Source: an uncultured Actinomycetes bacterium (lineage in GTDB: Bacteria > Actinomycetota > Thermoleophilia > Gaiellales > JAICJC01). Taken from it: DNA of 64,000 nucleotides. The notes beneath the pieces are model-generated. The model saw only the letters and a list, made by a program, of their open reading frames with translations. It was not told the origin of the DNA and made no database searches. Of the stretch, positions 7,182 to 38,414 are shown piece by piece; within the stretch, counting starts at the first letter, position 1; every line of letters starts with the position of its first letter. The stretch covers positions 431,218-495,217 of the forward strand of contig CAVVAA010000004.1 of NCBI GenBank assembly GCA_963746115.1. The letters run 5' to 3'. Position numbers and translations under genes: made by a program.

Positions 7182-8354
7182 TCAGCCGATCCCCCGCGCG
7201 GCGATGATCGCCGCGGCGGAGGGCAGCGAGCCCACGACGGTGTAGCGCACGCCGTTCCGGTCGAACTGGATCAGTGTCCCGAGGGCGGTGTCGAGCTCGT
7301 GGCCGGACGCGCCGTCGATCGAGACGCGCGGCAGCGCGGCGAGCGGCGAGTGGTCGGCGCCGGCCGGCGTCCGCTGCTCGAGGACGGCGATCGCGCCCAG
7401 GCCCTGGCCGTACACCGCGACGGCGGCCGGCGTGCCCGACCAGTCGATCAGCCGCACGGACTTCCGCGGCAGGCCGACGAGCGAGCCCGGCGCGCTCAGC
7501 CGGAACGGCAGCGCCCGCGCGACGGCGGCCATGCCACTGACGTCGGGATGGTGGGCCGGTCGCATGCCGGCGGGCCGGGCCATGTGCTTCGGCGGGTGCA
7601 CGCGCACGATCTTCGTGCCGGGAGCGAGGTGCACCGCCAGGTCGGAGCTCGACACGGCGCCGTAGCTGATGTCGGTCACGGTCAGGGACAGCACGGGCGA
7701 GGAGTCCGTGCGGCTGTAGACGGCGATGCGCAGCGGGATCCCGTGGGCGGCGTCCCAGGCGAGCTGCACGGATCCGAGCAGGCCGCCGCTGTGACGCGGC
7801 GAGACCCGCACCGTGTACGCGGGCCGGCCGGCGATGTCGCCCGGGATCGCGCCGCTCAGATCGACGTGCTGCGTGACCTTCGCGAGCGCCCGCTGGATCT
7901 GGGAGATGCTCGGCACGGCGTGGCCGTGCATGTCCGATCCCGCGCCGTGGTCGTGGTGGCGGATCGGCATGACGTAGGCGGTGCCGGAGGAGACGTCGTA
8001 CAGGGTCGCGGTCGTCCCGTCGATACCGATCTCGGTGTCGCCGGCCGAGGACTGCAGCTCGAGGCGCAGCTTCCCGCCGCCGGCCCAGACGCGTCCCGTC
8101 GCGCCCGTGATGAGCGGTGAGCTCGAGCCGAGCGAGCTGTTCGCGACCAGGTGGTCCGTGAACTGCACCCGCGCCGTCACGCCCGAGACGGGCCGGGCGG
8201 CCGCGGCATCGTGGATCGCGGCTGCGAGCGAGCGGTGCGGCGGCTTGGGGCTGTCGCCGCCTGCGAGGGCGACGGCGCTCCCGGCCGCGACCGCCACCAC
8301 GACGATGATCGCGATGATGAGCTGTCTGGTCGATGCCCTTCGCAGAATGTTCAT
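7182..8354 (-). CDS. Membrane-anchored LolA-like / lipoprotein-sorting-fold protein (DUF2092/DUF4367-like)
   Basis: 390-aa ORF with N-terminal anchor LIIAIIVVVAVAAGSAVALAG followed by a beta-rich ectodomain. It sits between the histidine kinase and the ABC ATPase with 1-4 nt spacing. The family name is from memory and was not searched. Confidence 0.5.
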   Translation of the reverse strand: MNILRRASTRQLIIAIIVVVAVAAGSAVALAGGDSPKPPHRSLAAAIHDAAAARPVSGVTARVQFTDHLVANSSLGSSSPLITGATGRVWAGGGKLRLELQSSAGDTEIGIDGTTATLYDVSSGTAYVMPIRHHDHGAGSDMHGHAVPSISQIQRALAKVTQHVDLSGAIPGDIAGRPAYTVRVSPRHSGGLLGSVQLAWDAAHGIPLRIAVYSRTDSSPVLSLTVTDISYGAVSSSDLAVHLAPGTKIVRVHPPKHMARPAGMRPAHHPDVSGMAAVARALPFRLSAPGSLVGLPRKSVRLIDWSGTPAAVAVYGQGLGAIAVLEQRTPAGADHSPLAALPRVSIDGASGHELDTALGTLIQFDRNGVRYTVVGSLPSAAAIIAARGIG

Positions 8355-9745
8355 GGTCCGTTCCCTCCAGGTCCGTCACGCCGAGTTCTATCCGCGTCGC
8401 CTGAAAGGCGTCTGAGAGCGGGCAGGACGATGGCGATGCGGGGGCCGGCGATCTCGAGCCGGCCGCCGTGGCGCTCCGCGGTCGCCCGGACGAGCGCCAG
8501 GCCGAGGCCGGAGCCCGGCCGCGCCCGCGCATCCTCGCCGCGCCAGAAGCGCGTCGTCGCCGCCTCGACCTGGTCGGGCGGGATGCCCGGCCCGGTGTCG
8601 GTGACGGTGAGCCGCACCTCGTCGCCGGCGCGGGTCACGGCGACCTCGACCGGGCCGTCCTCCGGGCCGTGAGCGAGCGCGTTTGCGACCAGGTTTCTGA
8701 GCGCCCGTTCGAGCGCCTGCTCGTCGCCGCGCACGATCCCGGGATCGTGCGCCTCCGCGCGGACGCGGCCGCCCGCTGAGGCCAGCGCCAGGGCGTCCAG
8801 GCGCACCTCGGCGTCAGGGACGGCGGCGGCGTCCTCGCGGGCCAGCGCGAGCAGCTCGTCGACGAGGCGGCTGAGCCGGTCGGCGTCCGCCTGCAGGTCG
8901 GCGAGCGCCTCGCGGTCGGCGCCGTGGCGGGCGAGGTATTCGGCGTTCCCGCGCAGCGCGGCGAGCGGGTTTCGCAGCTCGTGCGAGGCGTCGGCGACGA
9001 AGCGCCGCTCCCCTTCTCGCGAGCGCTCGAGCGCGGCCAGCATGCGGTTCAGCGTCTCGGCCAGGCGGGCGACGTCGTCCGGGGTGCGGCCGCCGTCGGC
9101 CGCCGGCAGGCGCAGCGAGGGATCGCCGCGGCGTTCGATCACCTCGGCGCCCTCGGCCAGGGCCTGCAGCGGGCGCAGGGCGCGGCCGGTGAGGACGTAC
9201 GCGATCGGCGCGACGAGCAGCGCGGCCGCGAACGCGCAGGCGACGATCAGCGTGCGCGACTCGTGCAGGGTGGAGTCGACCTCGTCGGTCGTCGACGCCA
9301 CGACCACTGCCCCGCCCGAGGCGGGCCCGCCGAGGGCGGCGAGCGGCGCGGCGTAGAGGCGCAGGCGCTCGCCGGCGAGCGTGCCGTCGCCGTACACCCC
9401 GCGGCCGCCGCGGATCGCCCGCCGCGCGAGCGTCCCGCCGGGCAGCGTCGTTCCCGCCAGCTTGCGGCCGTGCCGGTCGACGACCTCGACCTCCAGGCGG
9501 CGGGCCTCGACCGACGCCTCGAGCACCGGCGGGGAGGTGAGCAGCGCCGGCGCGGTGGCCGCGAGCTGGGCCACCTGCGCGGCCCGGTCGCGGAGGGTGC
9601 TGTCGAGCGCCTGATGCAGGTGGCGGGAGAGCAGCACCTGCACGGCCGCCCCGAGGACGACGACGGCGGCCACGATCGAGATCGTCGCGGCCGCCACGAC
9701 GCGGGTGCGCAGACGCGGGGCCCGCGTGCGCAGGCGTCCCGTCAT
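8351..9745 (-). CDS. Sensor histidine kinase (HAMP-HisKA-HATPase, OmpR-partner type)
   Basis: Track ORF 8351..9868 trimmed to ATG 9745, which overlaps the response-regulator stop (ATGA). H-box FVADASHELRNPL. ATPase motifs TDTGPGIP and GSGLGLALV. Confidence 0.9.
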   Translation of the reverse strand: MTGRLRTRAPRLRTRVVAAATISIVAAVVVLGAAVQVLLSRHLHQALDSTLRDRAAQVAQLAATAPALLTSPPVLEASVEARRLEVEVVDRHGRKLAGTTLPGGTLARRAIRGGRGVYGDGTLAGERLRLYAAPLAALGGPASGGAVVVASTTDEVDSTLHESRTLIVACAFAAALLVAPIAYVLTGRALRPLQALAEGAEVIERRGDPSLRLPAADGGRTPDDVARLAETLNRMLAALERSREGERRFVADASHELRNPLAALRGNAEYLARHGADREALADLQADADRLSRLVDELLALAREDAAAVPDAEVRLDALALASAGGRVRAEAHDPGIVRGDEQALERALRNLVANALAHGPEDGPVEVAVTRAGDEVRLTVTDTGPGIPPDQVEAATTRFWRGEDARARPGSGLGLALVRATAERHGGRLEIAGPRIAIVLPALRRLSGDADRTRRDGPGGNGP

Positions 9746-30247: not shown

Positions 30248-31540
30248 ATGTACGACTACGGCTTCTTCTCCTACGAGTCCAAGGACGAGTTCCTCGACCG
30301 GTCGCGGCAGTTCTGGAACCCGGACAAGACCGACTTCTGGCAGGACGCCGGGGTCGACCTCGTCATCGACCGCCGCGAGGGCTACTTCTTCTGGGACATG
30401 GCCGGGCGGCGCCTGGTCGACCTGCACCTGAACGGCGGCACGTACAACCTGGGCCACCGCAATCCCGAGCTGATCGCGACGCTCGAGCAGGCGATGCAGC
30501 GCTTCGACATCGGCAACCACCACTTCCCGGCGCTCGCCCGCACCGCCCTGGCCGAGGCGCTCGTGAAGACGTGCGCCCCGAACATGCGCCGGGTGGTCTA
30601 CGGCGCGGGCGGCGGCGAGGCCACCGACATCGCGATCAAGACCGCCCGCCACACCCGCCAGCGGCGCAAGATCGTCTCGATCCTCAAGGGCTACCACGGC
30701 CACACCGGCCTCGCGGTCTCCGCCGGGGACGACCGCTTCTCGAAGCTCTTCCTGGCCGACCGCCCCGACGAGTTCGTGCAGGTGCCGTTCAACGACCTCG
30801 GCGCCATGGAGGGTGCGCTGCGCGCGGGCGACGTGGCCGCCGTGCTGCTCGAGACCATCCCCGCCACGTACGGCTTCCCGCTGCCCGACCCCGGCTACCT
30901 CCAGGGGGTGAAACGGCTCTGCGAGCGGTTCGGCGCCCTCTACATCGCCGACGAGGTGCAGACCGGGCTCATGCGCACGGGCGAGATGTGGGGCATCTCC
31001 AAGGCCGGCGTCGAGCCGGACATCATGGTGATCGGCAAGGGCATCACCGGCGGCATGTACCCGATCTCGTGCGTCGTCCTCTCGGAGGAGTGCTCGGCGT
31101 GGCTGAAGGAGGACGGCTTCGGCCACATCTCCACCGGCGGCGGGGCCGAGCTCGGCTGTGTCGTCGCCCTCAAGGTGCTCGAGATCTGCGGCCGGCCGGA
31201 GGTGCGCTCGATGGTGCACTACATCTCCGACCGCTTCGGCCGCGGCCTGCGCGCGATCCAGGAGCTCTACCCCGACTGGTTCGTCGGCATCCGCCAGGAC
31301 GGCGTGGTCATGGGGCTCGAGTTCGACCATCCCCAGGGCGCGAAGATCGTGATGAAGCAGCTGTACGAGAACGGCGTGTGGGCGATCTTCTCGACGCTCG
31401 ACCCGCGCGTGCTCCAGTTCAAGCCGGGGATCCTGCTCGGCCCGGAGCTGGTGGACGAGGTGCTCGACCGCACCGAGGTGTCGATCGGGCAGGCGCTCGC
31501 CGAGGTGCGCGGCGGCCGGGCCGCGGTGGGGGCGCGATGA
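30248..31540 (+). CDS. Class-III aminotransferase-fold PLP enzyme. In RMM-type BMC loci this is the 1-amino-2-propanol O-phosphate phospho-lyase.
   Basis: ATG 30248 within track ORF 30143..31540. MYDYGFFSYESKDEFLDRSRQFWNP...LNGGTYNLGHRNPE...IADEVQTGLMRTGEMWG...PDIMVIGKGITGGMYP (PLP Lys). Confidence 0.8.
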   Translation: MYDYGFFSYESKDEFLDRSRQFWNPDKTDFWQDAGVDLVIDRREGYFFWDMAGRRLVDLHLNGGTYNLGHRNPELIATLEQAMQRFDIGNHHFPALARTALAEALVKTCAPNMRRVVYGAGGGEATDIAIKTARHTRQRRKIVSILKGYHGHTGLAVSAGDDRFSKLFLADRPDEFVQVPFNDLGAMEGALRAGDVAAVLLETIPATYGFPLPDPGYLQGVKRLCERFGALYIADEVQTGLMRTGEMWGISKAGVEPDIMVIGKGITGGMYPISCVVLSEECSAWLKEDGFGHISTGGGAELGCVVALKVLEICGRPEVRSMVHYISDRFGRGLRAIQELYPDWFVGIRQDGVVMGLEFDHPQGAKIVMKQLYENGVWAIFSTLDPRVLQFKPGILLGPELVDEVLDRTEVSIGQALAEVRGGRAAVGAR

Positions 31541-33042
31541 GCGCCGTCGCCGCCGAGCCGGCCGGCGTCCCCCGGGCGCGGATGATGCTCCAGCGCGCCC
31601 ACTGGGCCGCCACGGCGTTCGCCGCGTACGACCACGAGCGCACCCGCCGCATCGTCGAGGCAGTCGCCGAGGAGGCATACCGAAACGCCGAAAGGTATGC
31701 CGAGTGGGCGGTCACGGAGACCGGCATGGGCGTGGTCGAGCACAAGCGGCGCAAGAACGAGGCCTGCTCGCGCGGGCTGCTCGAGTGGTACGGCGGCCGC
31801 GACTACGTGAGCGCCCGGGTCGATCCCGAGGCGAAGATCGTCGAGCTGCCCCGGCCGGCCGGCGTCGTCCTCGCCCTGACGCCGTCGACGAACCCGATCG
31901 CCACCGTCTACTTCAAGGTGCTGCTGGCGCTGATGACCCGCAACGCCGTCGTCGTCAGCCCGCATCCGCTCGCGCGCGAGTCGTCGGCCGACGCCGCCCA
32001 CCGCCTGGCGGCGGCCGCCGTCGAGGCGGGCGCCCCCGACGGGTGCGTGCAGGCCGTGGAGGAGCCGACGATCCCGCTGATCGAGGCGCTCATGAGCGAC
32101 CCGACGACCGACGTCATCCTGGCGACGGGCGGCGTCGCGGTCGTCCGGGCCGCCTACCGCTCCGGCAACCCGGCGATCGGCGTCGGCCCGGGCAACGTGC
32201 CCGCGCTCGTCGATCACACCGCCGACCTGGCCGCGGCCGCCGAACGGCTGATGGACTCGAAGTGCTTCGACAACTCGATCCTGTGCACGAACGAGTCGTG
32301 CGCGATCGTCGAGGAGCGCTGCGCCGCGGAGTTCGAGCGCGAGCTGGCCCGCCACGGCGGCCACGTGGTCGCGCCGGACGAGGTGGCGGCGGTGCGCGAG
32401 AAGCTCTACCCGGAGGGCCGCATCCGGGTCGACCTGGCCGGGCGCGACGCGGCCCGGCTGGCGGAGGAGTGCGGGATCCGCGTGCCGGCGAAGACGCGCG
32501 TCCTGGTCGCGCCGTTCCCGCTCGTCGTCCCCGAGGAGCCGCTCGCGCGCGAGAAGCTCTTCCCGCTGCTCGGGCTCGTGCGGGTGCCGGACGCGCGCCG
32601 CGGCATCGACGCCGCGTGCGCCATGCTGCGCATCGGCGGGGCCGGCCATTCGGCGGTGATCCACTCGCGCGACCCGCGCACGATCATGGCCTACGGCGCC
32701 GCGGTGAAGGTGCTGCGGGTGGCCGTGAACGTCGGCGGCAGCACCGGCTCGGCGGGCCTCGACACGAACCTCGCGCCGACGATGACGATCGGCACGGGCT
32801 TCTTCGGGCGGTCGTCGCTCGGCGAGAACCTGGAGCCGCGGCATCTGATCAACATGACCCGGGTCGCCTATTCCTCCGACCCGTCCGAGGCCTTCGGCGA
32901 CTTCGCCGACCTCGAGCCGTGGAGCGCCGCGCCCGAGGCCGCACCCGTCGCGGCGCCGGAGCGTCCGGCGGCCGTCGCCGAGGCCCGCGACGAGATCCGC
33001 CGGATCGTGCTCGAGGAGCTGCGGGAGCTGGTGAGACGTTGA
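31537..33042 (+). CDS. CoA-acylating aldehyde dehydrogenase (EutE/PduP-like) with C-terminal amphipathic extension
   Basis: ATG 31537 overlaps the upstream stop (ATGA). Lies in the frame of track ORF 30037..33042. LTPSTNP...ATGGVAVVRAAYRSGNPAIGVGPGN...KCFDNSILCTNE (catalytic Cys). Tail PEAAPVAAPERPAAVAEARDEIRRIVLEELRELVRR. Confidence 0.88.
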   Translation: MSAVAAEPAGVPRARMMLQRAHWAATAFAAYDHERTRRIVEAVAEEAYRNAERYAEWAVTETGMGVVEHKRRKNEACSRGLLEWYGGRDYVSARVDPEAKIVELPRPAGVVLALTPSTNPIATVYFKVLLALMTRNAVVVSPHPLARESSADAAHRLAAAAVEAGAPDGCVQAVEEPTIPLIEALMSDPTTDVILATGGVAVVRAAYRSGNPAIGVGPGNVPALVDHTADLAAAAERLMDSKCFDNSILCTNESCAIVEERCAAEFERELARHGGHVVAPDEVAAVREKLYPEGRIRVDLAGRDAARLAEECGIRVPAKTRVLVAPFPLVVPEEPLAREKLFPLLGLVRVPDARRGIDAACAMLRIGGAGHSAVIHSRDPRTIMAYGAAVKVLRVAVNVGGSTGSAGLDTNLAPTMTIGTGFFGRSSLGENLEPRHLINMTRVAYSSDPSEAFGDFADLEPWSAAPEAAPVAAPERPAAVAEARDEIRRIVLEELRELVRR

Positions 33043-33647
33043 TGGCCGAGCTCAGATCGTTCATCTTCATCGACCAGCTCCAGCCGCAGACGATGTGCTA
33101 CCTCGGCACGTGGATCCGCGGCCGGCTCCCGCGCACGAACATGGCGGCGCAGATCATCGAGATCGCGCCCGGCCTGGACATCGAGCCGCTGACCGACGTC
33201 GCGCTCAAGTCGACCGAGGTGCAGGCGGGCATCCTGGTCGTCGAGCGCCAGTTCGGCTACCTCGAGATCCACTCCCGCTCGACCGCCGAGGTGCACGCCG
33301 CGAGCAGCGCCGTGCTCGAGGCGCTCGGCGCGACGGCCGCCGACGCGACCCGGCCGCAGATCCTGGCGTCGGAGCTGATCACCCGGCTCGACCACCAGCA
33401 CGCCTTCCTGATCAACCGCAACAAGCTCGGGTCGATGGCGCTTCCCGGCGAGTCGCTCTTCGTGCTCGAGATGCAGCCCGCCTCCTACGCGATCCTCGCC
33501 ACGAACGAGGCCGAGAAGGCGGCGCGGATCAAGGTGGTCGACTACCGCATGATCGGCGCCACCGGCCGGGTGTACCTGGCCGGCATGGAGGCCGACGTGC
33601 GCACGGCCGGCGACGCCGCCGTCGCGGCGCTGGGAGGTGCGGTGTGA
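33042..33647 (+). CDS. BMC shell protein, ~200 aa, tandem-domain (BMC-T-like), paralogue 1
   Basis: ATG 33042 overlaps the ALDH stop. MAELRSFIFIDQLQPQTMCYLGTW...VVERQFGYLEIHSRS...INRNKLGSMALPGESLFVLEMQPASYAILATNEAEKAA...GATGRVYLAG. Paralogous to 34802..35443. Position matches the ~200-aa shell genes of RMM loci (from memory). Confidence 0.65.
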   Translation: MAELRSFIFIDQLQPQTMCYLGTWIRGRLPRTNMAAQIIEIAPGLDIEPLTDVALKSTEVQAGILVVERQFGYLEIHSRSTAEVHAASSAVLEALGATAADATRPQILASELITRLDHQHAFLINRNKLGSMALPGESLFVLEMQPASYAILATNEAEKAARIKVVDYRMIGATGRVYLAGMEADVRTAGDAAVAALGGAV

Positions 33648-34270
33648 GCACCCCGGAAGACGCCGACGTGCTGCGCAGCGTCACTCGCGAGGTGCTGGCC
33701 GACCTCCTGCCCGAGCTGCTGTCGGAGGCGCTGACGACGTCGAACGGGAATGGGCATGGGGACAGTCCCCATCCGGGGACTGTCCCCGATTCTCGGCCAG
33801 GCACCGTCCCCCAGGTGCCGGGGCCGCCGATCGCCGCCGTGCATCGCCCCGCCGGGTGGCGTCCGCCGCCCGAGTCGGATACGACCCGGCCGCAGCCCGC
33901 GGCACCGGCGCCCGTGTCGGCGCAGACGGATGCCGGCGCGGCCGTCGAGCGGGTCGACCTGCGCAGCGACGCCGACCTGGACGCGTTCGTGCGCTCGCTC
34001 GTGCACCGGTTCGAGAACCCGCGCGACCGCATGGCGATCCGGTCCGGCAAGCTGCGCTTCCGGCTGGGCGCGACGGCCGAGACGACCTCGCAGCCTGCGT
34101 CCGCGCCGGCGATCCGGATCGAGCGCGGCGCCGTCACCGAGCGGGCCGTGCGCGACGCGGCCGCCCAGGGCGCCCGGCTCGTGCTGGCGCCGCGGGCGGT
34201 GCTGACGCCGATGGCGCGCGACCGCGCCCGGAGCCTGGGAGTCGAGATCGAGAAGGAGCGACCATGCTGA
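33644..34270 (+). CDS. BMC-associated protein of unknown function, 208 aa. Has an N-terminal amphipathic helix and a Pro-rich linker that contains an in-frame palindromic repeat.
   Basis: GTG 33644 overlaps the upstream stop (GTGTGA). [30 protein letters not shown]...[26 protein letters not shown]...[47 protein letters not shown]. Confidence 0.6.
33758..33787. repeat. Palindromic 13-mer pair, family A (GGGGACAGTCCCC-atcc-GGGGACTGTCCCC), inside a CDS
   Basis: Exact copies. Translated in frame as [10 protein letters not shown] within the linker of gene 33644..34270. Confidence 0.9.
33795..33822. repeat. Degenerate family-B pair (GGCCAGGCACC ... GGTGCCGGGG), inside the same CDS
   Basis: 10/13 and about 9/13 matches to GGTGCCWGGCACC, 7 nt downstream of the family-A pair. 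Translated as [10 protein letters not shown]. Confidence 0.4.
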
Positions 34271-34506
34271 GAGCGACCGTCACCGGCGCTGTGTGGGCGA
34301 CCAAGCGGGTCGACCGGATCCCGAACGGCGCGTTCCTCGAGGTCGAGATGGACGGCGGCGGCCGCGCGGTCGCGTTCGACGTGCTCGGAAGCGGCGTCGG
34401 CGAGCGCGTGCTGGTCGCAACCGGCTCGGTCGCCTCGAGCTGGCTCGGGGACGACCATCCGCCCATCGACGCACTCATCATCGGATCCATCGACGAGAAC
34501 GAGTAA
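34264..34506 (+). CDS. BMC vertex pentamer (BMC-P, EutN/CcmL family)
   Basis: ATG 34264 overlaps the upstream stop. 80 aa: [57 protein letters not shown]...[11 protein letters not shown]. Matches the EutN pattern by eye. Confidence 0.85.
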
Positions 34507-34517
34507 GAGGAGGAGTC

Positions 34518-34796
34518 ATGGCACAGAACGCAATCGGCATGATCGAGACCAAGGGGTACGTGGCGGCAATCGCTGCCGCGGACGCAATGGTCAAGGCCGC
34601 GAACGTCACGATCGTGGCCCGCGAGCAGGTCGGCGACGGCCTCGTGTCCGTCGTGATCCAGGGCGACGTCGGGGCCGTGAAGGCCGCCACGGAGGCGGGC
34701 GCCGAGACCGCCTCGAGCGTCGGCGACCTCGTGTCGGTGCACGTCATCCCGCGCCCGCACTCCGAGCTCGACAAGCACTTCGTGCACGCGGGCTAG
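34518..34796 (+). CDS. BMC hexamer shell protein (BMC-H, PduA/EutM-like, Pfam BMC domain)
   Basis: ATG 34518 after AGGAGGAG. 92 aa: [81 protein letters not shown]. Confidence 0.93.
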
Positions 34797-34801
34797 CGGG
34801 G

Positions 34802-35443
34802 ATGGAGAACTCCGCAGTCCAGCTGCGGGTCTACCTGCCGATCCCGAGGCTCGGCCGCCAGTTCGCGGCCTATCTGGGGACGCCCACGCGTGCCCGTGGA
34901 TACCCGCCGATCGAGGGCGACCACGCGCTGATCGTCGAGGTGGCGCCGGCGCTCGCGATCGAGCGGGTGACCGACCTCGCGCTGCGGTCGGTGCCGGAGA
35001 TCGAGCCGGGCATCCTCTACGTCGAGCGCCAGTTCGGCGTGCTCGAGGTGCACCACCGGGACAAGGCGCTCGTCGACCGGGCCGGCGCGGCCATCCTCGA
35101 CGGGATCGGGGCGACGGCCGCGGACGCGCTGCGGCCGCGTATCCTCTACGCCGACGTGATCGAGGACATCACCGACCAGCACGCGGTGATCATCAACCGC
35201 AACCGCGAGGCGTCGATGGTGCTGCCGGGCGAGACGCTGCTCGTGTACGAGGTGGTGCCCGCGCTGCACGCCGCCATGGCCGCCAACGCCGCCGAGCGGG
35301 CCGCGCCGGAGGCGACGCTCGTCACCGTCTCGATGATCGGCGCCGCCGGCCGCATCTACATGTCCGGCGACACGGAGAGCGTCGTGCGCGCCCGCGACGA
35401 GATCACGCGCGTGCTCGAGTCGGTGGAGGGCCGTGAGCACTGA
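34802..35443 (+). CDS. BMC shell protein, ~213 aa, tandem-domain (BMC-T-like), paralogue 2
   Basis: 213-aa ORF. YVERQFGVLEVHHRD...INRNREASMVLPGETLLVYEVVPALHAAMAANAAERAA...GAAGRIYMSG. Collinear with 33042..33647. Confidence 0.65.
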   Translation: MENSAVQLRVYLPIPRLGRQFAAYLGTPTRARGYPPIEGDHALIVEVAPALAIERVTDLALRSVPEIEPGILYVERQFGVLEVHHRDKALVDRAGAAILDGIGATAADALRPRILYADVIEDITDQHAVIINRNREASMVLPGETLLVYEVVPALHAAMAANAAERAAPEATLVTVSMIGAAGRIYMSGDTESVVRARDEITRVLESVEGREH

Positions 35444-36419
35444 CCAGGCTGCGATCGACCGCCTGGCCCAGGCCGCGCTGCCCGCGTACGACCTCGACCC
35501 GGCGGCCACGGTCGCCCTGATCAACGTGTCCGAGAACTGGACGTACCGGATCGAGGAGCCGGGCGGCCGCGCGTTCGCGCTGCGCGTCCACCGGCCGACG
35601 TACCACACGGCCGAGGAGATCGCCTCGGAGCTCGACTGGATCGACGCGCTGCGCGATGACGGCGTGGTGGAGACGGCGCATGCCGTCGCCGGCCGGGGCG
35701 GGGACCGCGTCTGCCAGGTGCGCACCGACGAGCTCGGCGAGCGCAACGTCGTGCTGTTCGACTGGCTCGCGGGCGAGATGCCCGACGCCGACGCGCACGA
35801 CCTCATGCCCGGGTTCCGCACGCTCGGCGCCGTCTCGGCCCGGATGCACCGCCATTCCCGCAGCTGGGCGCCGCCGTCGGGGTTCGCCCGCTTCCGCTGG
35901 GAGTACGACACGACGCTCGGCGCGAACGGCCACTGGGGCCGGTGGCAGGACGGCCTCGGGATGGGATCGGAGGAGCTCGCGCTGCTCGGCCGGCTCGACG
36001 CCACGCTACGGCAACGGCTCGACGCCTACGGCCAGGGGGCCGAGCGGTTCGGCCTCGTCCATGCCGACATCCGCCTCGCCAACCTGCTCGTCGACGGCGA
36101 GCACGTGCGCGTGATCGACTTCGACGACTGCGGCTGGTCGTGGTTCATGTACGACTTCGCCACGACCGTGTCGTTCATCGAGGACCACCCGGACGTGCCC
36201 CGGCTGAAGGCCGCCTGGGTGGAGGGCTACCGCTCCGCCGCCGAGCTCGACCCGGCCGACGAGGCCGAGCTGGACACCTTCGTCATGCTGCGCCGGCTCC
36301 TGCTCGTGGCCTGGATCGGCTCGCACCACCAGTTCGCCACCGAGGCCGCCGAGCTCGGCGCCGGATTCACCGCCGGCACCTGCGCGCTCGCCGAGCGGTA
36401 CCTCTCCGCATACGGCTGA
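35433..36419 (+). CDS. APH-fold phosphotransferase. In RMM-type loci this is the 1-amino-2-propanol kinase.
   Basis: 328-aa ORF with GTG start, overlapping the upstream gene by 11 nt. INVSENWTYRIE...FGLVHADIRLANLLVDGEHVRVIDFDDCGW. Confidence 0.82.
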   Translation: MSTDQAAIDRLAQAALPAYDLDPAATVALINVSENWTYRIEEPGGRAFALRVHRPTYHTAEEIASELDWIDALRDDGVVETAHAVAGRGGDRVCQVRTDELGERNVVLFDWLAGEMPDADAHDLMPGFRTLGAVSARMHRHSRSWAPPSGFARFRWEYDTTLGANGHWGRWQDGLGMGSEELALLGRLDATLRQRLDAYGQGAERFGLVHADIRLANLLVDGEHVRVIDFDDCGWSWFMYDFATTVSFIEDHPDVPRLKAAWVEGYRSAAELDPADEAELDTFVMLRRLLLVAWIGSHHQFATEAAELGAGFTAGTCALAERYLSAYG

Positions 36420-36424
36420 GCCGG

Positions 36425-36772
36425 CTACTTGATGCTGACCACGAGCCGCAGGCGACCCGCATGTGGGACGTGGATCACGTGTGGCACGGTCACCGGTGGT
36501 AGGCCGCCCGTCCTGATGCTGACCGTGTACGTCCCGGGAGCCACGTCGAAGGCGAACCGGCCCTGTCGGTCGGTGCGGACGTCGGCCGACTCGCCATCAC
36601 CCTCGATCTCCAGGCGCACACCGGGCATCGCGACCGGCCCGCCCGCTGCAGGGCCGCCGATGCGCACGAGCGTGCCGTGCGTGTGGACCGGCCTGGAGCT
36701 CGCGGTCGATCCGCTTCCACATGCGGAGACGAGGAGGACGGCGAGCAGCACGACCGCGCGGGACCAATTCAT
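36425..36772 (-). CDS. Small lipoprotein with carboxypeptidase-regulatory-like (Ig-like beta-sandwich) domain
   Basis: Last 115 codons of track ORF 36425..37972(-), from ATG 36772. MNWSRAVVLLAVLLVSACGSG (lipobox LVSAC). VRLEIEGDGESADVRTDRQGRFAFDVAPGTYTVSI. Confidence 0.6.
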   Translation of the reverse strand: MNWSRAVVLLAVLLVSACGSGSTASSRPVHTHGTLVRIGGPAAGGPVAMPGVRLEIEGDGESADVRTDRQGRFAFDVAPGTYTVSIRTGGLPPVTVPHVIHVPHAGRLRLVVSIK

Positions 36773-36826: not shown

Positions 36827-37612
36827 ATGATGTTCACCCCACTCACCGGCCGGACGGTGCTCGTCACCGGCGGCACCAAGGGCATCGGCAAGGGCATCGC
36901 GGGCGAGTTCGCAGCTGCGGGCTGCAACGTCGCCCTGAGCGGCCGCGGCGAACATGCCGGCGAGCAGGCGGTGCTCGACCTCGAAGCGCGCGGCGGCCAC
37001 GTCTCCTTCTACAAGGGCGACGTCGCCAGGGCCGACGACTGCGAGCGGGTGGCGTCCGAGGTCGCCTCGCGCTACGGCGGCATCGACATCGTCTGCGCCA
37101 ACGCCGGCGTCTTCCCCGACGTCAAGCTGGCGGACATGACCGAGGACGACATCGACACGATCTTCGCGACCAACGTCAAGGGCACCATGCTGACGGTGAA
37201 GGCCTGCCTGCCCCACCTGGAGCGCTCCGGCCACGGCCGGGTGATCCTGACGAGCTCGATCACCGGCCCGATCACCGGGTTCCCGGGCTGGTCGCACTAC
37301 GGCGCGACGAAGGCGGCCCAGCTCGGCTTTCTGCGCACCGCCTGCATCGAGCTCGCGCCGAAGCGGATCACGGTGAACGCCGTCCTGCCGGGCAACGTCG
37401 AGTCGGAGGGGATGGACGAGCTCGGCCCCGAGTACCGGGCATCGATGGAGGCGTCGATCCCGCTCGGCCGCCTCGGCTACCCGTCGGAGATCGGGGCGGC
37501 GGCGGTGTTCCTGGCGACCGACGAGGCGGGCTACATCACCGGCCAGACCATCGTGGTCGACGGCGGCCAGATACAGCCCGAGTCGCTGGCCGCGCTCGAG
37601 GCCGCCCGGTAG
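36827..37612 (+). CDS. Short-chain dehydrogenase/reductase (FabG-like). In RMM-type loci this is the aminopropanol/aminoacetone dehydrogenase.
   Basis: ATG 36827 after GAGGAGGAG, within track ORF 36677..37612. VLVTGGTKGIGKGIA...NAGV...SSITG...YGATKAA. Confidence 0.88.
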   Translation: MMFTPLTGRTVLVTGGTKGIGKGIAGEFAAAGCNVALSGRGEHAGEQAVLDLEARGGHVSFYKGDVARADDCERVASEVASRYGGIDIVCANAGVFPDVKLADMTEDDIDTIFATNVKGTMLTVKACLPHLERSGHGRVILTSSITGPITGFPGWSHYGATKAAQLGFLRTACIELAPKRITVNAVLPGNVESEGMDELGPEYRASMEASIPLGRLGYPSEIGAAAVFLATDEAGYITGQTIVVDGGQIQPESLAALEAAR

Positions 37613-37619
37613 GGGCGCC

Positions 37620-38414
37620 GTGACCGAGCCCGTCCCCGGACTGCCCGCCGCCTTCGCGCCGCTCGGGCCGGCGGCGGCGGGCCTGCGCGACCGCCTCGCC
37701 GCCGAGATCGAGTCCGGCGCGCCAGGCCCGGGCGAGCGCCTGGGCGCCGAGCGCGAGCTCGCCGCCCGGCTGGGGGTGAGCCGCTCGACGCTGCGCGCCG
37801 CCCTGGATGCGCTCGAGACGGCGGGGGTCGTGCACCGCGTCCGCGGCCGGTCGGGCGGCATCTTCGTCTCGGAGCGGCGGGTCGAGCGCGACCTGACGAG
37901 CCTCACCAGCCTGCCGGCGTACATGCGCCGCCAGGGGTTCCAGTCCGGCGCCCGCGTGCTCTCGACGGCCACGGTCGGCGCCGACGCCGAGGCAGCCGCG
38001 GCCCTCGACGTGCCCGAGGGCGCGCTCGTGCTCGAGGTCGTCCGCGTCCGCCTCGCCGACGAGCAGCCGATCTCGCTCGAGCGGGCCCGCTTCCCCGCCG
38101 ACCGTTTCCCCGGGCTGCTCGACCGCTCGCTGTCGGGATCGCTGTACGAGCTGCTCGAGTCCGGCTACGGCCTGCGCCCGAGCGAGGCCGAGGAGCGGGT
38201 CGAGGTGGTCGGCGCGACGGCCGCCGAGGCCCGCGTGCTCGAGGTGCGCGCGGGCGCGCCGCTGGTGTCGATCGCCCGCACGGCCTGGTCGGAGGACGGC
38301 CGCCCGTTCGAGCGCTCGAACGACCTGTTCCGGGCCGACCGGGTGCGCATCGTCGTGCGCGTGCGCACGCGCGACCCGCATTCGCTGGGAAGCGCCGTCG
38401 AGGTCGTCCGCTAG
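37620..38414 (+). CDS. GntR-family transcriptional regulator, HutC subfamily (UTRA effector domain)
   Basis: 264-aa ORF. GERLGAERELAARLGVSRSTLRAALDALETAGVVHRVRGRSGGIFV, followed by a UTRA-like C-terminal half. Confidence 0.85.
   Translation: MTEPVPGLPAAFAPLGPAAAGLRDRLAAEIESGAPGPGERLGAERELAARLGVSRSTLRAALDALETAGVVHRVRGRSGGIFVSERRVERDLTSLTSLPAYMRRQGFQSGARVLSTATVGADAEAAAALDVPEGALVLEVVRVRLADEQPISLERARFPADRFPGLLDRSLSGSLYELLESGYGLRPSEAEERVEVVGATAAEARVLEVRAGAPLVSIARTAWSEDGRPFERSNDLFRADRVRIVVRVRTRDPHSLGSAVEVVR

Follow-up and report, generated by a model that had tools for sequence, protein, structure and literature searches.

A shell-cluster gene of an RMM/AAUM-type microcompartment locus may encode a PduM-like assembly protein

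A window of 64,000 nucleotides of contig CAVVAA010000004.1, from an uncultured Actinomycetes bacterium of the Gaiellales, carries a bacterial microcompartment (BMC) locus in which one gene, here called X, lies among the shell genes (33644..34270, forward strand). X encodes a protein of 208 amino acids that is unannotated, and it is the positional counterpart of msmeg_0274 in the RMM/AAUM locus. We propose, with a probability of roughly 55%, that X is a non-enzymatic, PduM-like assembly protein of the RMM/AAUM (aminoacetone / 1-amino-2-propanol) microcompartment, and that it links the enzyme core to the shell. An earlier reading of this DNA (the original prediction) had taken X for a function-unassigned member of the shell-gene cluster and had guessed at a scaffold or cargo-organising factor. 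The former is borne out; the latter fits the link of the C-terminal module to PduM described below. The X family as a whole is unannotated, and no assigned function was found for it.

The structure of X was predicted with AlphaFold2 (AF2) from 140 sequences, giving a mean pLDDT of 81.7, and motif and position counts for the family were made over 150 representatives. Residues 4–32 (33653..33739, forward strand, as are all parts of X) form a helix that resembles an encapsulation peptide or signal sequence (pLDDT 83–96). Residues 33–99 (33740..33940) are predicted to be disordered, with a pLDDT of 55–70 and without secondary structure. This tether of 67 amino acids contains 16 Pro, 9 Ala and 8 Gly, varies in length with indels among homologues, and has a ratio of non-synonymous to synonymous change (dN/dS, pooled over 29 related loci) of 0.53. 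Within it lies a Pro-rich linear motif of 27 amino acids (residues 55–81, 33806..33886; VPQVPxPPxAAVxRPSxW) with a dN/dS of 0.24, near-invariant in homologues of the Gaiellales/Solirubrobacterales type. The strict pattern matched 30 of the 150 representatives, and in a pattern scan it was absent from the Streptosporangiaceae, Nocardioides and Mycolicibacterium loci. Other lineages bear different short linker motifs in the tether; in members from Streptosporangiaceae, GLAHSVRE / YTVRDGVE was observed.

Two folded modules follow the tether. The middle module (residues 100–143, 33941..34072) is predicted as β-α-α-β with a pLDDT of 93–97, and is conserved family-wide with the consensus V.L..D.DL..FVR.L..L.ENP..R..LR.GRLRF.L. 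A variable loop, at about residues 142–155, lies between it and the C-terminal module (residues 156–205, 34109..34258), which is predicted as β-α-β-α-β with a pLDDT of 94–98 and bears the motifs GAVTE and TPxARD. In this module G162, E166, T188 and P189 are invariant, and it stands at the extreme C terminus in 146 of the 150 representatives. The structured C-terminal domain that had been expected is thus predicted with confidence (pLDDT 93–98). The linker had been described as a Pro/Ala-rich, low-complexity segment of roughly 90 amino acids; this description holds for residues 33–99, which are predicted to be disordered and are rich in Pro, Ala and Gly, but it overlooks the conserved 27-residue motif, and residues 100–143 belong to a folded, conserved β-α-α-β unit.

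When 37 diverse C-terminal modules of the X family were scanned singly against Pfam and NCBIfam, the NCBIfam model TIGR02536 (eut_hyp) was matched by 33 of them, with a best E of 6.3e-6 and at profile positions ~161–206 of 207. EutQ (NCBIfam NF012001) was matched by 12 modules (best E 0.0046, positions 5–46 of 233). For PduM, NCBIfam NF011957 was matched by nine (best E 0.0079) and TIGR04493 by four (best E 0.0055). The top three NCBIfam families for the module, out of the 18,950 in the library, consist without exception of accessory proteins of microcompartments. In Pfam, PDU_like (PF15953) was matched by three modules, with a best E of 0.13. The middle module, taken as a control of the same length and composition from the same proteins, gave scattered noise only against Pfam and NCBIfam, and no relatives. 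It had been supposed that the C-terminal module recurs in BMC-associated proteins, and it does so at the C terminus of PduM, at the N terminus of EutQ and at the C terminus of TIGR02536.

The particular resemblance that had been suggested, to the Co_AT_N-type region of adenosyltransferases, was not upheld. Neither the C-terminal 61 amino acids of X nor any of the 37 family modules matched Co_AT_N (PF12557) at E<=10, and the full X protein had no Pfam match. Weak likeness was seen only to the N terminus of EutT: residues 17–45 of the E. coli protein, which have a similar G..h.L....LTPxAR pattern, aligned with the X module in hhalign with a probability of 55% (E 1.2e-4, score 23.9; shuffled <=14.9), and E. 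coli EutT scored only 5.3 bits against the hidden Markov model of the X module. It may be noted that Co_AT_N was not reported on E. coli EutT in the Pfam copy used. Matches to E3_binding (peripheral-subunit-binding domain; 6/37, best E 0.0037) and to IF-2 (5/37) were rejected, being below cut-off and of the wrong topology; they reflect the (S/T)PxAR..A..G(V/I) helix-cap pattern or a generic α/β fold. One further sequence, P0129 (L090, 33–578), is an apparent fusion of a complete BMC-H domain with the middle and C-terminal modules of X, and would be, if real, a direct shell-X fusion. Since its only source is one 654-bp contig of one sample, it is probably an assembly chimera and was not used as evidence.

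The comparison with PduM was carried out with an alignment built from genuine, source-named PduM sequences, and E. coli K-12 proteins were used for the Eut comparisons. Residues 173–205 of X were aligned by hhalign, end to end, with about residues 129–162 of PduM, which are its last 33 residues (probability 86.5%, E 4.6e-6). The whole-X profile gave a probability of 71.7% (E 3.5e-5) against PduM. Because both X and pduM precede a pentamer gene, the comparison was repeated without the EKE/KQE tails, which are made by the codons of the ribosome-binding sites (RBS) of these downstream genes. The score was 34.2 with the tails removed and 35.0 with them, compared with at most 18.1 for column-shuffled and 8.6 for reversed PduM; hence, the tails are not the source of the match.

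The AF2 model of PduM (pLDDT 92, pTM 0.80) comprises a helix (3–21), a β-α-α-β unit (E24–28, H29–34, H37–43, E46–50) and a C-terminal β-α-β-α-β unit (E114–118, H125–129, E134–138, H146–154, E157–161), with an extra α-α-β-α-α-β segment at 54–109 that X does not have. As far as the order of elements in the two models goes, X and PduM are therefore co-linear (helix / β-α-α-β / β-α-β-α-β), and residues 1–18 of X gave a weak co-linear hhalign match with residues 1–14 of PduM (E 0.005 for the segment alone). In both proteins hydrophobic and polar residues alternate along the N-terminal helix, a pattern that resembles a signal sequence. PduM carries its ..LVLxRxxVVTALAR[DE]AA..I.. module at the extreme C terminus, aligned to the end of X. 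Its gene lies directly upstream of the pentamer gene, in the order pduL-pduM-pduN, as X lies before the gene of the pentamer BMC-P. PduM has no enzyme signature and no solved homologue, and the same is true of X, for which library, PDB sequence and Foldseek searches gave no enzyme family or solved structure; a profile of the X module gave nothing significant against PDB sequences. The two proteins differ in that X has a tether of ~70 residues, predicted to be disordered and bearing the Pro-rich motif, whereas PduM has none; compartment type and phylum also differ, X coming from the RMM/AAUM compartment and from Actinomycetota. X was not filed as PduM, because it fails the cut-offs of the PduM models.

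The X module was also aligned with residues 2–45 of E. coli EutQ, over 42 columns, with a probability of 90.9% (E 1.1e-6, score 32.6; shuffled <=12.6), while no terminus of the other E. coli Eut proteins, EutT apart, scored above 14.8. Judged by these profile comparisons, the C-terminal module of X is homologous to the C terminus of PduM and to the N terminus of EutQ. EutQ, a cupin-fold acetate kinase of ethanolamine utilisation, has the module (ITxxDIR...IITPEAREVA..LG, ~45 residues) at its N terminus, ahead of the cupin enzyme domain, whereas in X it is C-terminal and packed against the additional β-α-α-β unit; X matched neither PF06249 nor a cupin model, and its AF2 model is α/β and not a β-barrel. 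The E. coli genes eutQ and eutN, moreover, are not neighbours, unlike X and BMC-P. No model in the Pfam copy used covers residues 1–84 of EutQ or 1–94 of EutT (E. coli). In E. coli K-12 (L084, 11503–13004), the adjacent genes eutT and eutQ both start with a ~40-residue module, ITxxxh...G..h.L....(I/L)TPxARE, which is clear in EutQ and weak in EutT.

TIGR02536 gave the strongest library match to X. It is, like X, a function-unassigned protein of a microcompartment locus, and in TIGRFAM it is described as an uncharacterised protein of non-proteobacterial eut operons. The match falls at the C-terminal end of both proteins; the likeness, compared by profile model alone, is limited to the terminal ~45 positions. 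X of the window itself scored 13.8 bits against a cut-off of 152.6, at positions 161–205 of 207 only.

The following has been reported for the two named relatives. PduM, which has a structural role, occurs in smaller amount than PduN and is strongly associated with the cargo core, and its loss leaves the core partly separated from the shell and gives aberrant, enlarged or elongated shells (PMC9132943, PMC12108088). Its residues 1–23 were shown to work as a signal sequence, directing the protein to the core, and in 2025 it was described as lacking known homologues outside the Pdu compartments (PMC12108088). EutQ promotes the formation of multiple Eut compartments, and EutQ without residues 1–100 did not bind the BMC-H protein EutM in vitro (PMC4827028).

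At the N terminus of X, an LRxLVREVLxxLLP-type motif was present in 117 of the 150 representatives. The aldehyde dehydrogenase of the same locus (AldDH; 31537–33042, forward strand) ends, by its translation, in an encapsulation-peptide-like tail, EARDEIRRIVLEELRELVRR (32980..33039, forward strand), and 75 AldDH tails from related loci gave the consensus aLREEIRRvVLEELreLV after a linker. By their residue pattern, the motif of the X helix (LRxhVREVLxxLL) and that of the AldDH tail (IRRhVLEELRELV) are variants of a single motif, each of them similar to the pattern of Pdu signal sequences (PduM: LQRIVEEIVSRL). The AldDH C terminus (32900–33039) as a whole consists of a conserved FGDFxGL(E/Q)PW, a variable Pro/Ala linker and then the tail, an arrangement that is widely kept in the 75 tails.

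The original prediction had described the N terminus of X as targeting-like and as amphipathic. The AF2 helix at 4–32 and the motif match to the AldDH tail agree with the first description. As to the second, the amphipathicity of the helix is only moderate: the maximum 18-mer hydrophobic moment was 0.39, a value reached by 21% of shuffles (shuffle mean 0.32), whereas the AldDH tail gave 0.55 and PduM 0.66. Since the moment is modest, the encapsulation-peptide claim rests on the motif and on the helix-plus-linker arrangement, in which the terminal helix is set off from the body of the protein by the low-pLDDT, unstructured residues 33–99. The encapsulation peptides of metabolosome cargo (PduP, PduD, the RMM AldDH tail) likewise consist of a terminal helix and a flexible linker; the helix of X differs from these in its length (~29 residues), in its modest moment and, like the helices of PduM and PduB, in belonging to a protein that is not an enzyme. 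On this resemblance, the N-terminal helix of X would act as an encapsulation peptide.

Taken by analogy, X is most likely built on the plan of PduM and does the same job. Its encapsulation, its binding partners and its linker role are matters that we infer, and the proposed mechanism may be put as follows. The helix (4–32) would join a helix-mediated condensate of cargo, that of AldDH, since it has the same motif as the AldDH C-terminal tail, and X would thus be placed in the enzyme core. The flexible tether of ~70 residues would give reach and, in Gaiellales/Solirubrobacterales, would add a Pro-rich docking motif. The compact α/β domain (100–205), whose last ~45 residues are the module common to the PduM C terminus, the EutQ N terminus and the TIGR02536 C terminus, would make a protein–protein contact on the shell side. 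X, which would be produced in step with the pentamer, would in this way tie the core to the shell.

Several observations weigh against such a PduM-like role. X lies below the curated cut-off of every PduM, EutQ and TIGR02536 model, and its homology to PduM and EutQ can be demonstrated over 33–42 residues only. No alignment to PduM was obtained for the middle of X, and PduM has an additional segment of ~55 residues. The hydrophobic moment of the X helix (0.39) is unremarkable. Moreover, Yang et al. could detect an association of PduM with cargo but none with shell assemblies.

The gene set of the window locus comprises a class-III aminotransferase (30248–31540), AldDH, one BMC-H, one BMC-P, two BMC-Tdp, an APH-family kinase (35433–36419), an SDR (about 36830–37612), a GntR (37620–38414) and a permease downstream of GntR, the enzymes, regulator and permease being assigned with Pfam/NCBIfam. 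This set fits the description of RMM1 (Sutter et al. 2021, Supplementary Data 2 and 6), and the locus is therefore an RMM1/AAUM-type microcompartment locus. Its gene order is identical to that of a related locus, L001. Immediately upstream of X is a CcmP/CsoS1D-like double-domain BMC-T (33042..33647; NF053796 E 1.9e-64 and Pfam BMC), and downstream follow, all on the forward strand, a BMC-P pentamer of the EutN/CcmL family (34264..34506; PF03319 E 9.4e-18), a BMC-H hexamer shell protein (34518..34796; read from the translated open reading frame, the L001 orthologue having PF00936) and a second, CcmP-like BMC-T (34802..35443; NF053796 E 3.9e-53). The neighbours of X had been read as a BMC-T-like gene and a pentamer gene, and the family assignments confirm both.

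The ten locus proteins of the window were mapped onto 82 loci, as far as the contigs reach. The order aminotransferase-AldDH-BMC-T-X-BMC-P-BMC-H-BMC-T-APH kinase-SDR-GntR was found in 82/82; as these loci were all retrieved through X, the count gives the place of X and not the share of RMM loci that carry it. This constancy takes in Mycolicibacterium agri, Nocardioides and a metagenome-assembled genome (MAG) of Gemmatimonadota, and divergent metagenomic members of the family are likewise found between BMC-T and BMC-P. The earlier question, whether an orthologue occupies the equivalent position, is thus answered in the affirmative for these 82 loci. The catalogue of M. smegmatis genes gives msmeg_0271 and 0275 as BMC-Tdp, 0272 as BMC-H, 0273 as BMC-P, 0276 as AldDH and 0277 as the aminotransferase; msmeg_0274 is not listed there, and its number falls in the slot of X. 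No mention of msmeg_0274 or MSM0274 was found in the literature open to search.

At the junction of X with BMC-P (34253..34270, forward strand), the ATG of BMC-P at 34264 lies inside X (ATGCTGA, a 7-nt overlap, with the TGA of X at 34268–34270), and its RBS, AAGGAG (34253–34258), is made by the codons of the terminal ..KE residues of X. The two genes overlap or abut in at least 66 of the 82 loci, 46 of them with the same 7-nt ATGCTGA overlap. X thus appears, from the sequence of this junction, to be translationally coupled to BMC-P. In codons 201–208 of X both synonymous and non-synonymous change (pS, pN) are low, which fits a dual constraint, and part of the extreme conservation of 'EKERPC' (the last ~8 codons) is probably a constraint at the DNA level from the RBS. 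The apparent coupling suggests low, pentamer-linked expression, as for PduM beside PduN, and by this analogy X would be a protein of low abundance.

The same junction may be taken to mean that X is an assembly factor specific for the vertex or pentamer, which recruits or chaperones BMC-P and so acts on shell closure and size. The position of pduM immediately upstream of pduN is in keeping with this, and the enlarged or elongated shells of pduM-less strains would also fit a defect in capping (PMC9132943, PMC12108088). However, adjacency and coupling indicate co-expression and not interaction. EutQ bears the same module, yet in E. coli its gene stands apart from eutN, and the N-terminal region of EutQ is reported to have the hexamer EutM as its partner (PMC4827028). 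We consider a pentamer-specific factor to be improbable, though not negligibly so.

We give the same low weight to the idea that X is a cargo adaptor, the globular domain of which would bind the class-III aminotransferase-like enzyme, apparently without a targeting peptide of its own, while the helix carries the complex into the lumen. At the window locus only AldDH and X bear encapsulation-type terminal helices; the aminotransferase, the kinase and the SDR, by inspection only, have no obvious terminal extension, and X is always co-encoded with these three in RMM1 loci. Against this, the module is also present in PduM, EutQ and TIGR02536, whose microcompartments hold different cargo, and X is kept where the genes downstream differ. 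This was seen in the variant locus L086 (1–3477, together with a JGI contig), where the cassette T1-X-P-H-T2 (T1 and T2 being the two BMC-T, P the BMC-P and H the BMC-H) precedes genes for a DMF_alpha-like protein of 99 amino acids, an FMN_bind_2 protein and an AraC regulator in place of kinase-SDR-GntR. L086 may have another gene order (RMM2-like) or another cargo set. Since unrelated genes follow T2 in this locus, X seems to travel with the shell cassette.

A function as a small cofactor-binding or catalytic protein, for example in a recycling of CoA or NAD+ that is absent from RMM loci, is less probable still. RMM loci have no phosphotransacylase (PTAC) and no alcohol dehydrogenase (AlcDH) (PMC4207490), the predicted domain of X is a small α/β fold, and faint matches were obtained to CoA_binding_2 (2/37 modules, E 0.018) and to Rossmann-like structures. 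No match was significant, however; that to CoA_binding_2 was rejected as noise, and the best Foldseek hit (E 0.0096) was the generic fold of IF2 C1. The invariant residues (G162, E166, T188, P189) do not make up a nucleotide-binding glycine motif, the homologous module in PduM and in the EutQ N terminus has no known catalytic role, and an N-terminal helix with a disordered tether is typical of scaffolds.

X starts with GTG at 33644, preceded by the RBS GGGAGG at 33632–33637 (together 33632..33646, forward strand, by sequence). The start overlaps the stop codon of the BMC-T gene by 4 nt (GTGA; TGA at 33645–33647), and the same 4-nt overlap of T1 and X recurs in every called context (L001, L083, L086, L087, L089). 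The extent 33644–34270 and the overlaps with both neighbours given in the original prediction are confirmed by the sequence, and the N- and C-terminal peptides quoted there agree exactly with the translation. The G+C content at third codon positions (GC3) of X is 0.91, compared with 0.91–0.98 in the neighbouring genes, in a window of 73% G+C. Indels in the alignment of homologues come in multiples of three, and the dN/dS, at 0.24–0.37, is lower in the conserved blocks than in the variable segments (0.53). X is a real gene under purifying selection. The alternative, that X is an open frame arisen by chance in the GC-rich DNA that separates the shell genes, is refuted: although high-GC DNA carries long open frames in all frames and no library gives the protein a name, the GC3 of 0.91 in this frame, the 690 cluster representatives, the conservation of amino acids in blocks with indels in multiples of three, the dN/dS below 1 and lowest in those blocks, the confident AF2 fold and the conserved coupling of start and stop all speak for a coding gene.

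A word-indexed search gave 1575 homologues of X. Among the 120 listed, every named one was a "hypothetical protein", none had a Pfam domain, and the closest named organisms were Gaiellales. An exhaustive profile search gave 690 cluster representatives at E<=1e-3, of which 406 also passed E<=1e-10. A relative of X is encoded in 312 stretches of species-representative genomes, and the best 80 of these 312 include Gaiellales, Thermoleophilia, Solirubrobacterales, Streptosporangiaceae, Nocardioides carbamazepini, Mycolicibacterium agri and one Gemmatimonadota MAG.

Some further observations were made in the course of the survey. Two loci, L071 from the MAG labelled Gemmatimonadota and L063 from one labelled 'uncultured Bifidobacterium', are complete RMM1-type loci with an X that looks typical of the actinobacterial family, which points to horizontal transfer or to errors of binning or labelling. 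In a Gaiellales MAG (L007, about 8001–8603), the X orthologue is without 17 residues inside the C-terminal module; this gap may have arisen by deletion between the two 'AV' repeats or through misassembly. Between the kinase and the SDR of the window, on the minus strand at about 36425–36766, lies a small gene whose product has a lipoprotein-like signal, MNWSRAVVLLAVLLVSACGSG..., and after it a CarboxypepD_reg-like domain. This opposite-strand insertion (113 aa, PF13620) is also present in loci L001 and L002.

A scaffold-like protein in a microcompartment locus is unsurprising in itself. What the analysis adds is one short module that joins PduM, the EutQ N terminus, TIGR02536 and the X family, a proposal that is specific, testable and apparently undescribed. 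Tentatively, the ~40–45-residue T-P-x-A-R-[D/E] module, with its β-α-β-α-β order, might be an unrecognised docking module across PDU (PduM), EUT1 (EutQ, possibly EutT), EUT2 (TIGR02536) and RMM/AAUM (X) compartments, and its combination with an encapsulation helix beside a pentamer gene, as in PduM and X, might be a general means by which metabolosomes couple the core to the shell or vertex; we regard this wider reading as possible but doubtful. If it were true, PduM would gain a family spanning several microcompartment types and phyla. For the RMM/AAUM compartment, which occurs in mycobacteria and many soil Actinomycetota, shell structures have been solved and enzymes characterised, but an assigned assembly factor was not found, and the catalogue tables pass over the msmeg_0274-type gene. 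Should X be a PduM-like linker, it would be a concrete candidate for RMM assembly and for heterologous reconstitution, the X family would provide the first relatives of PduM outside Pdu, and the short transferable module and the helix motif would be candidate shell- and core-docking parts for engineered compartments.

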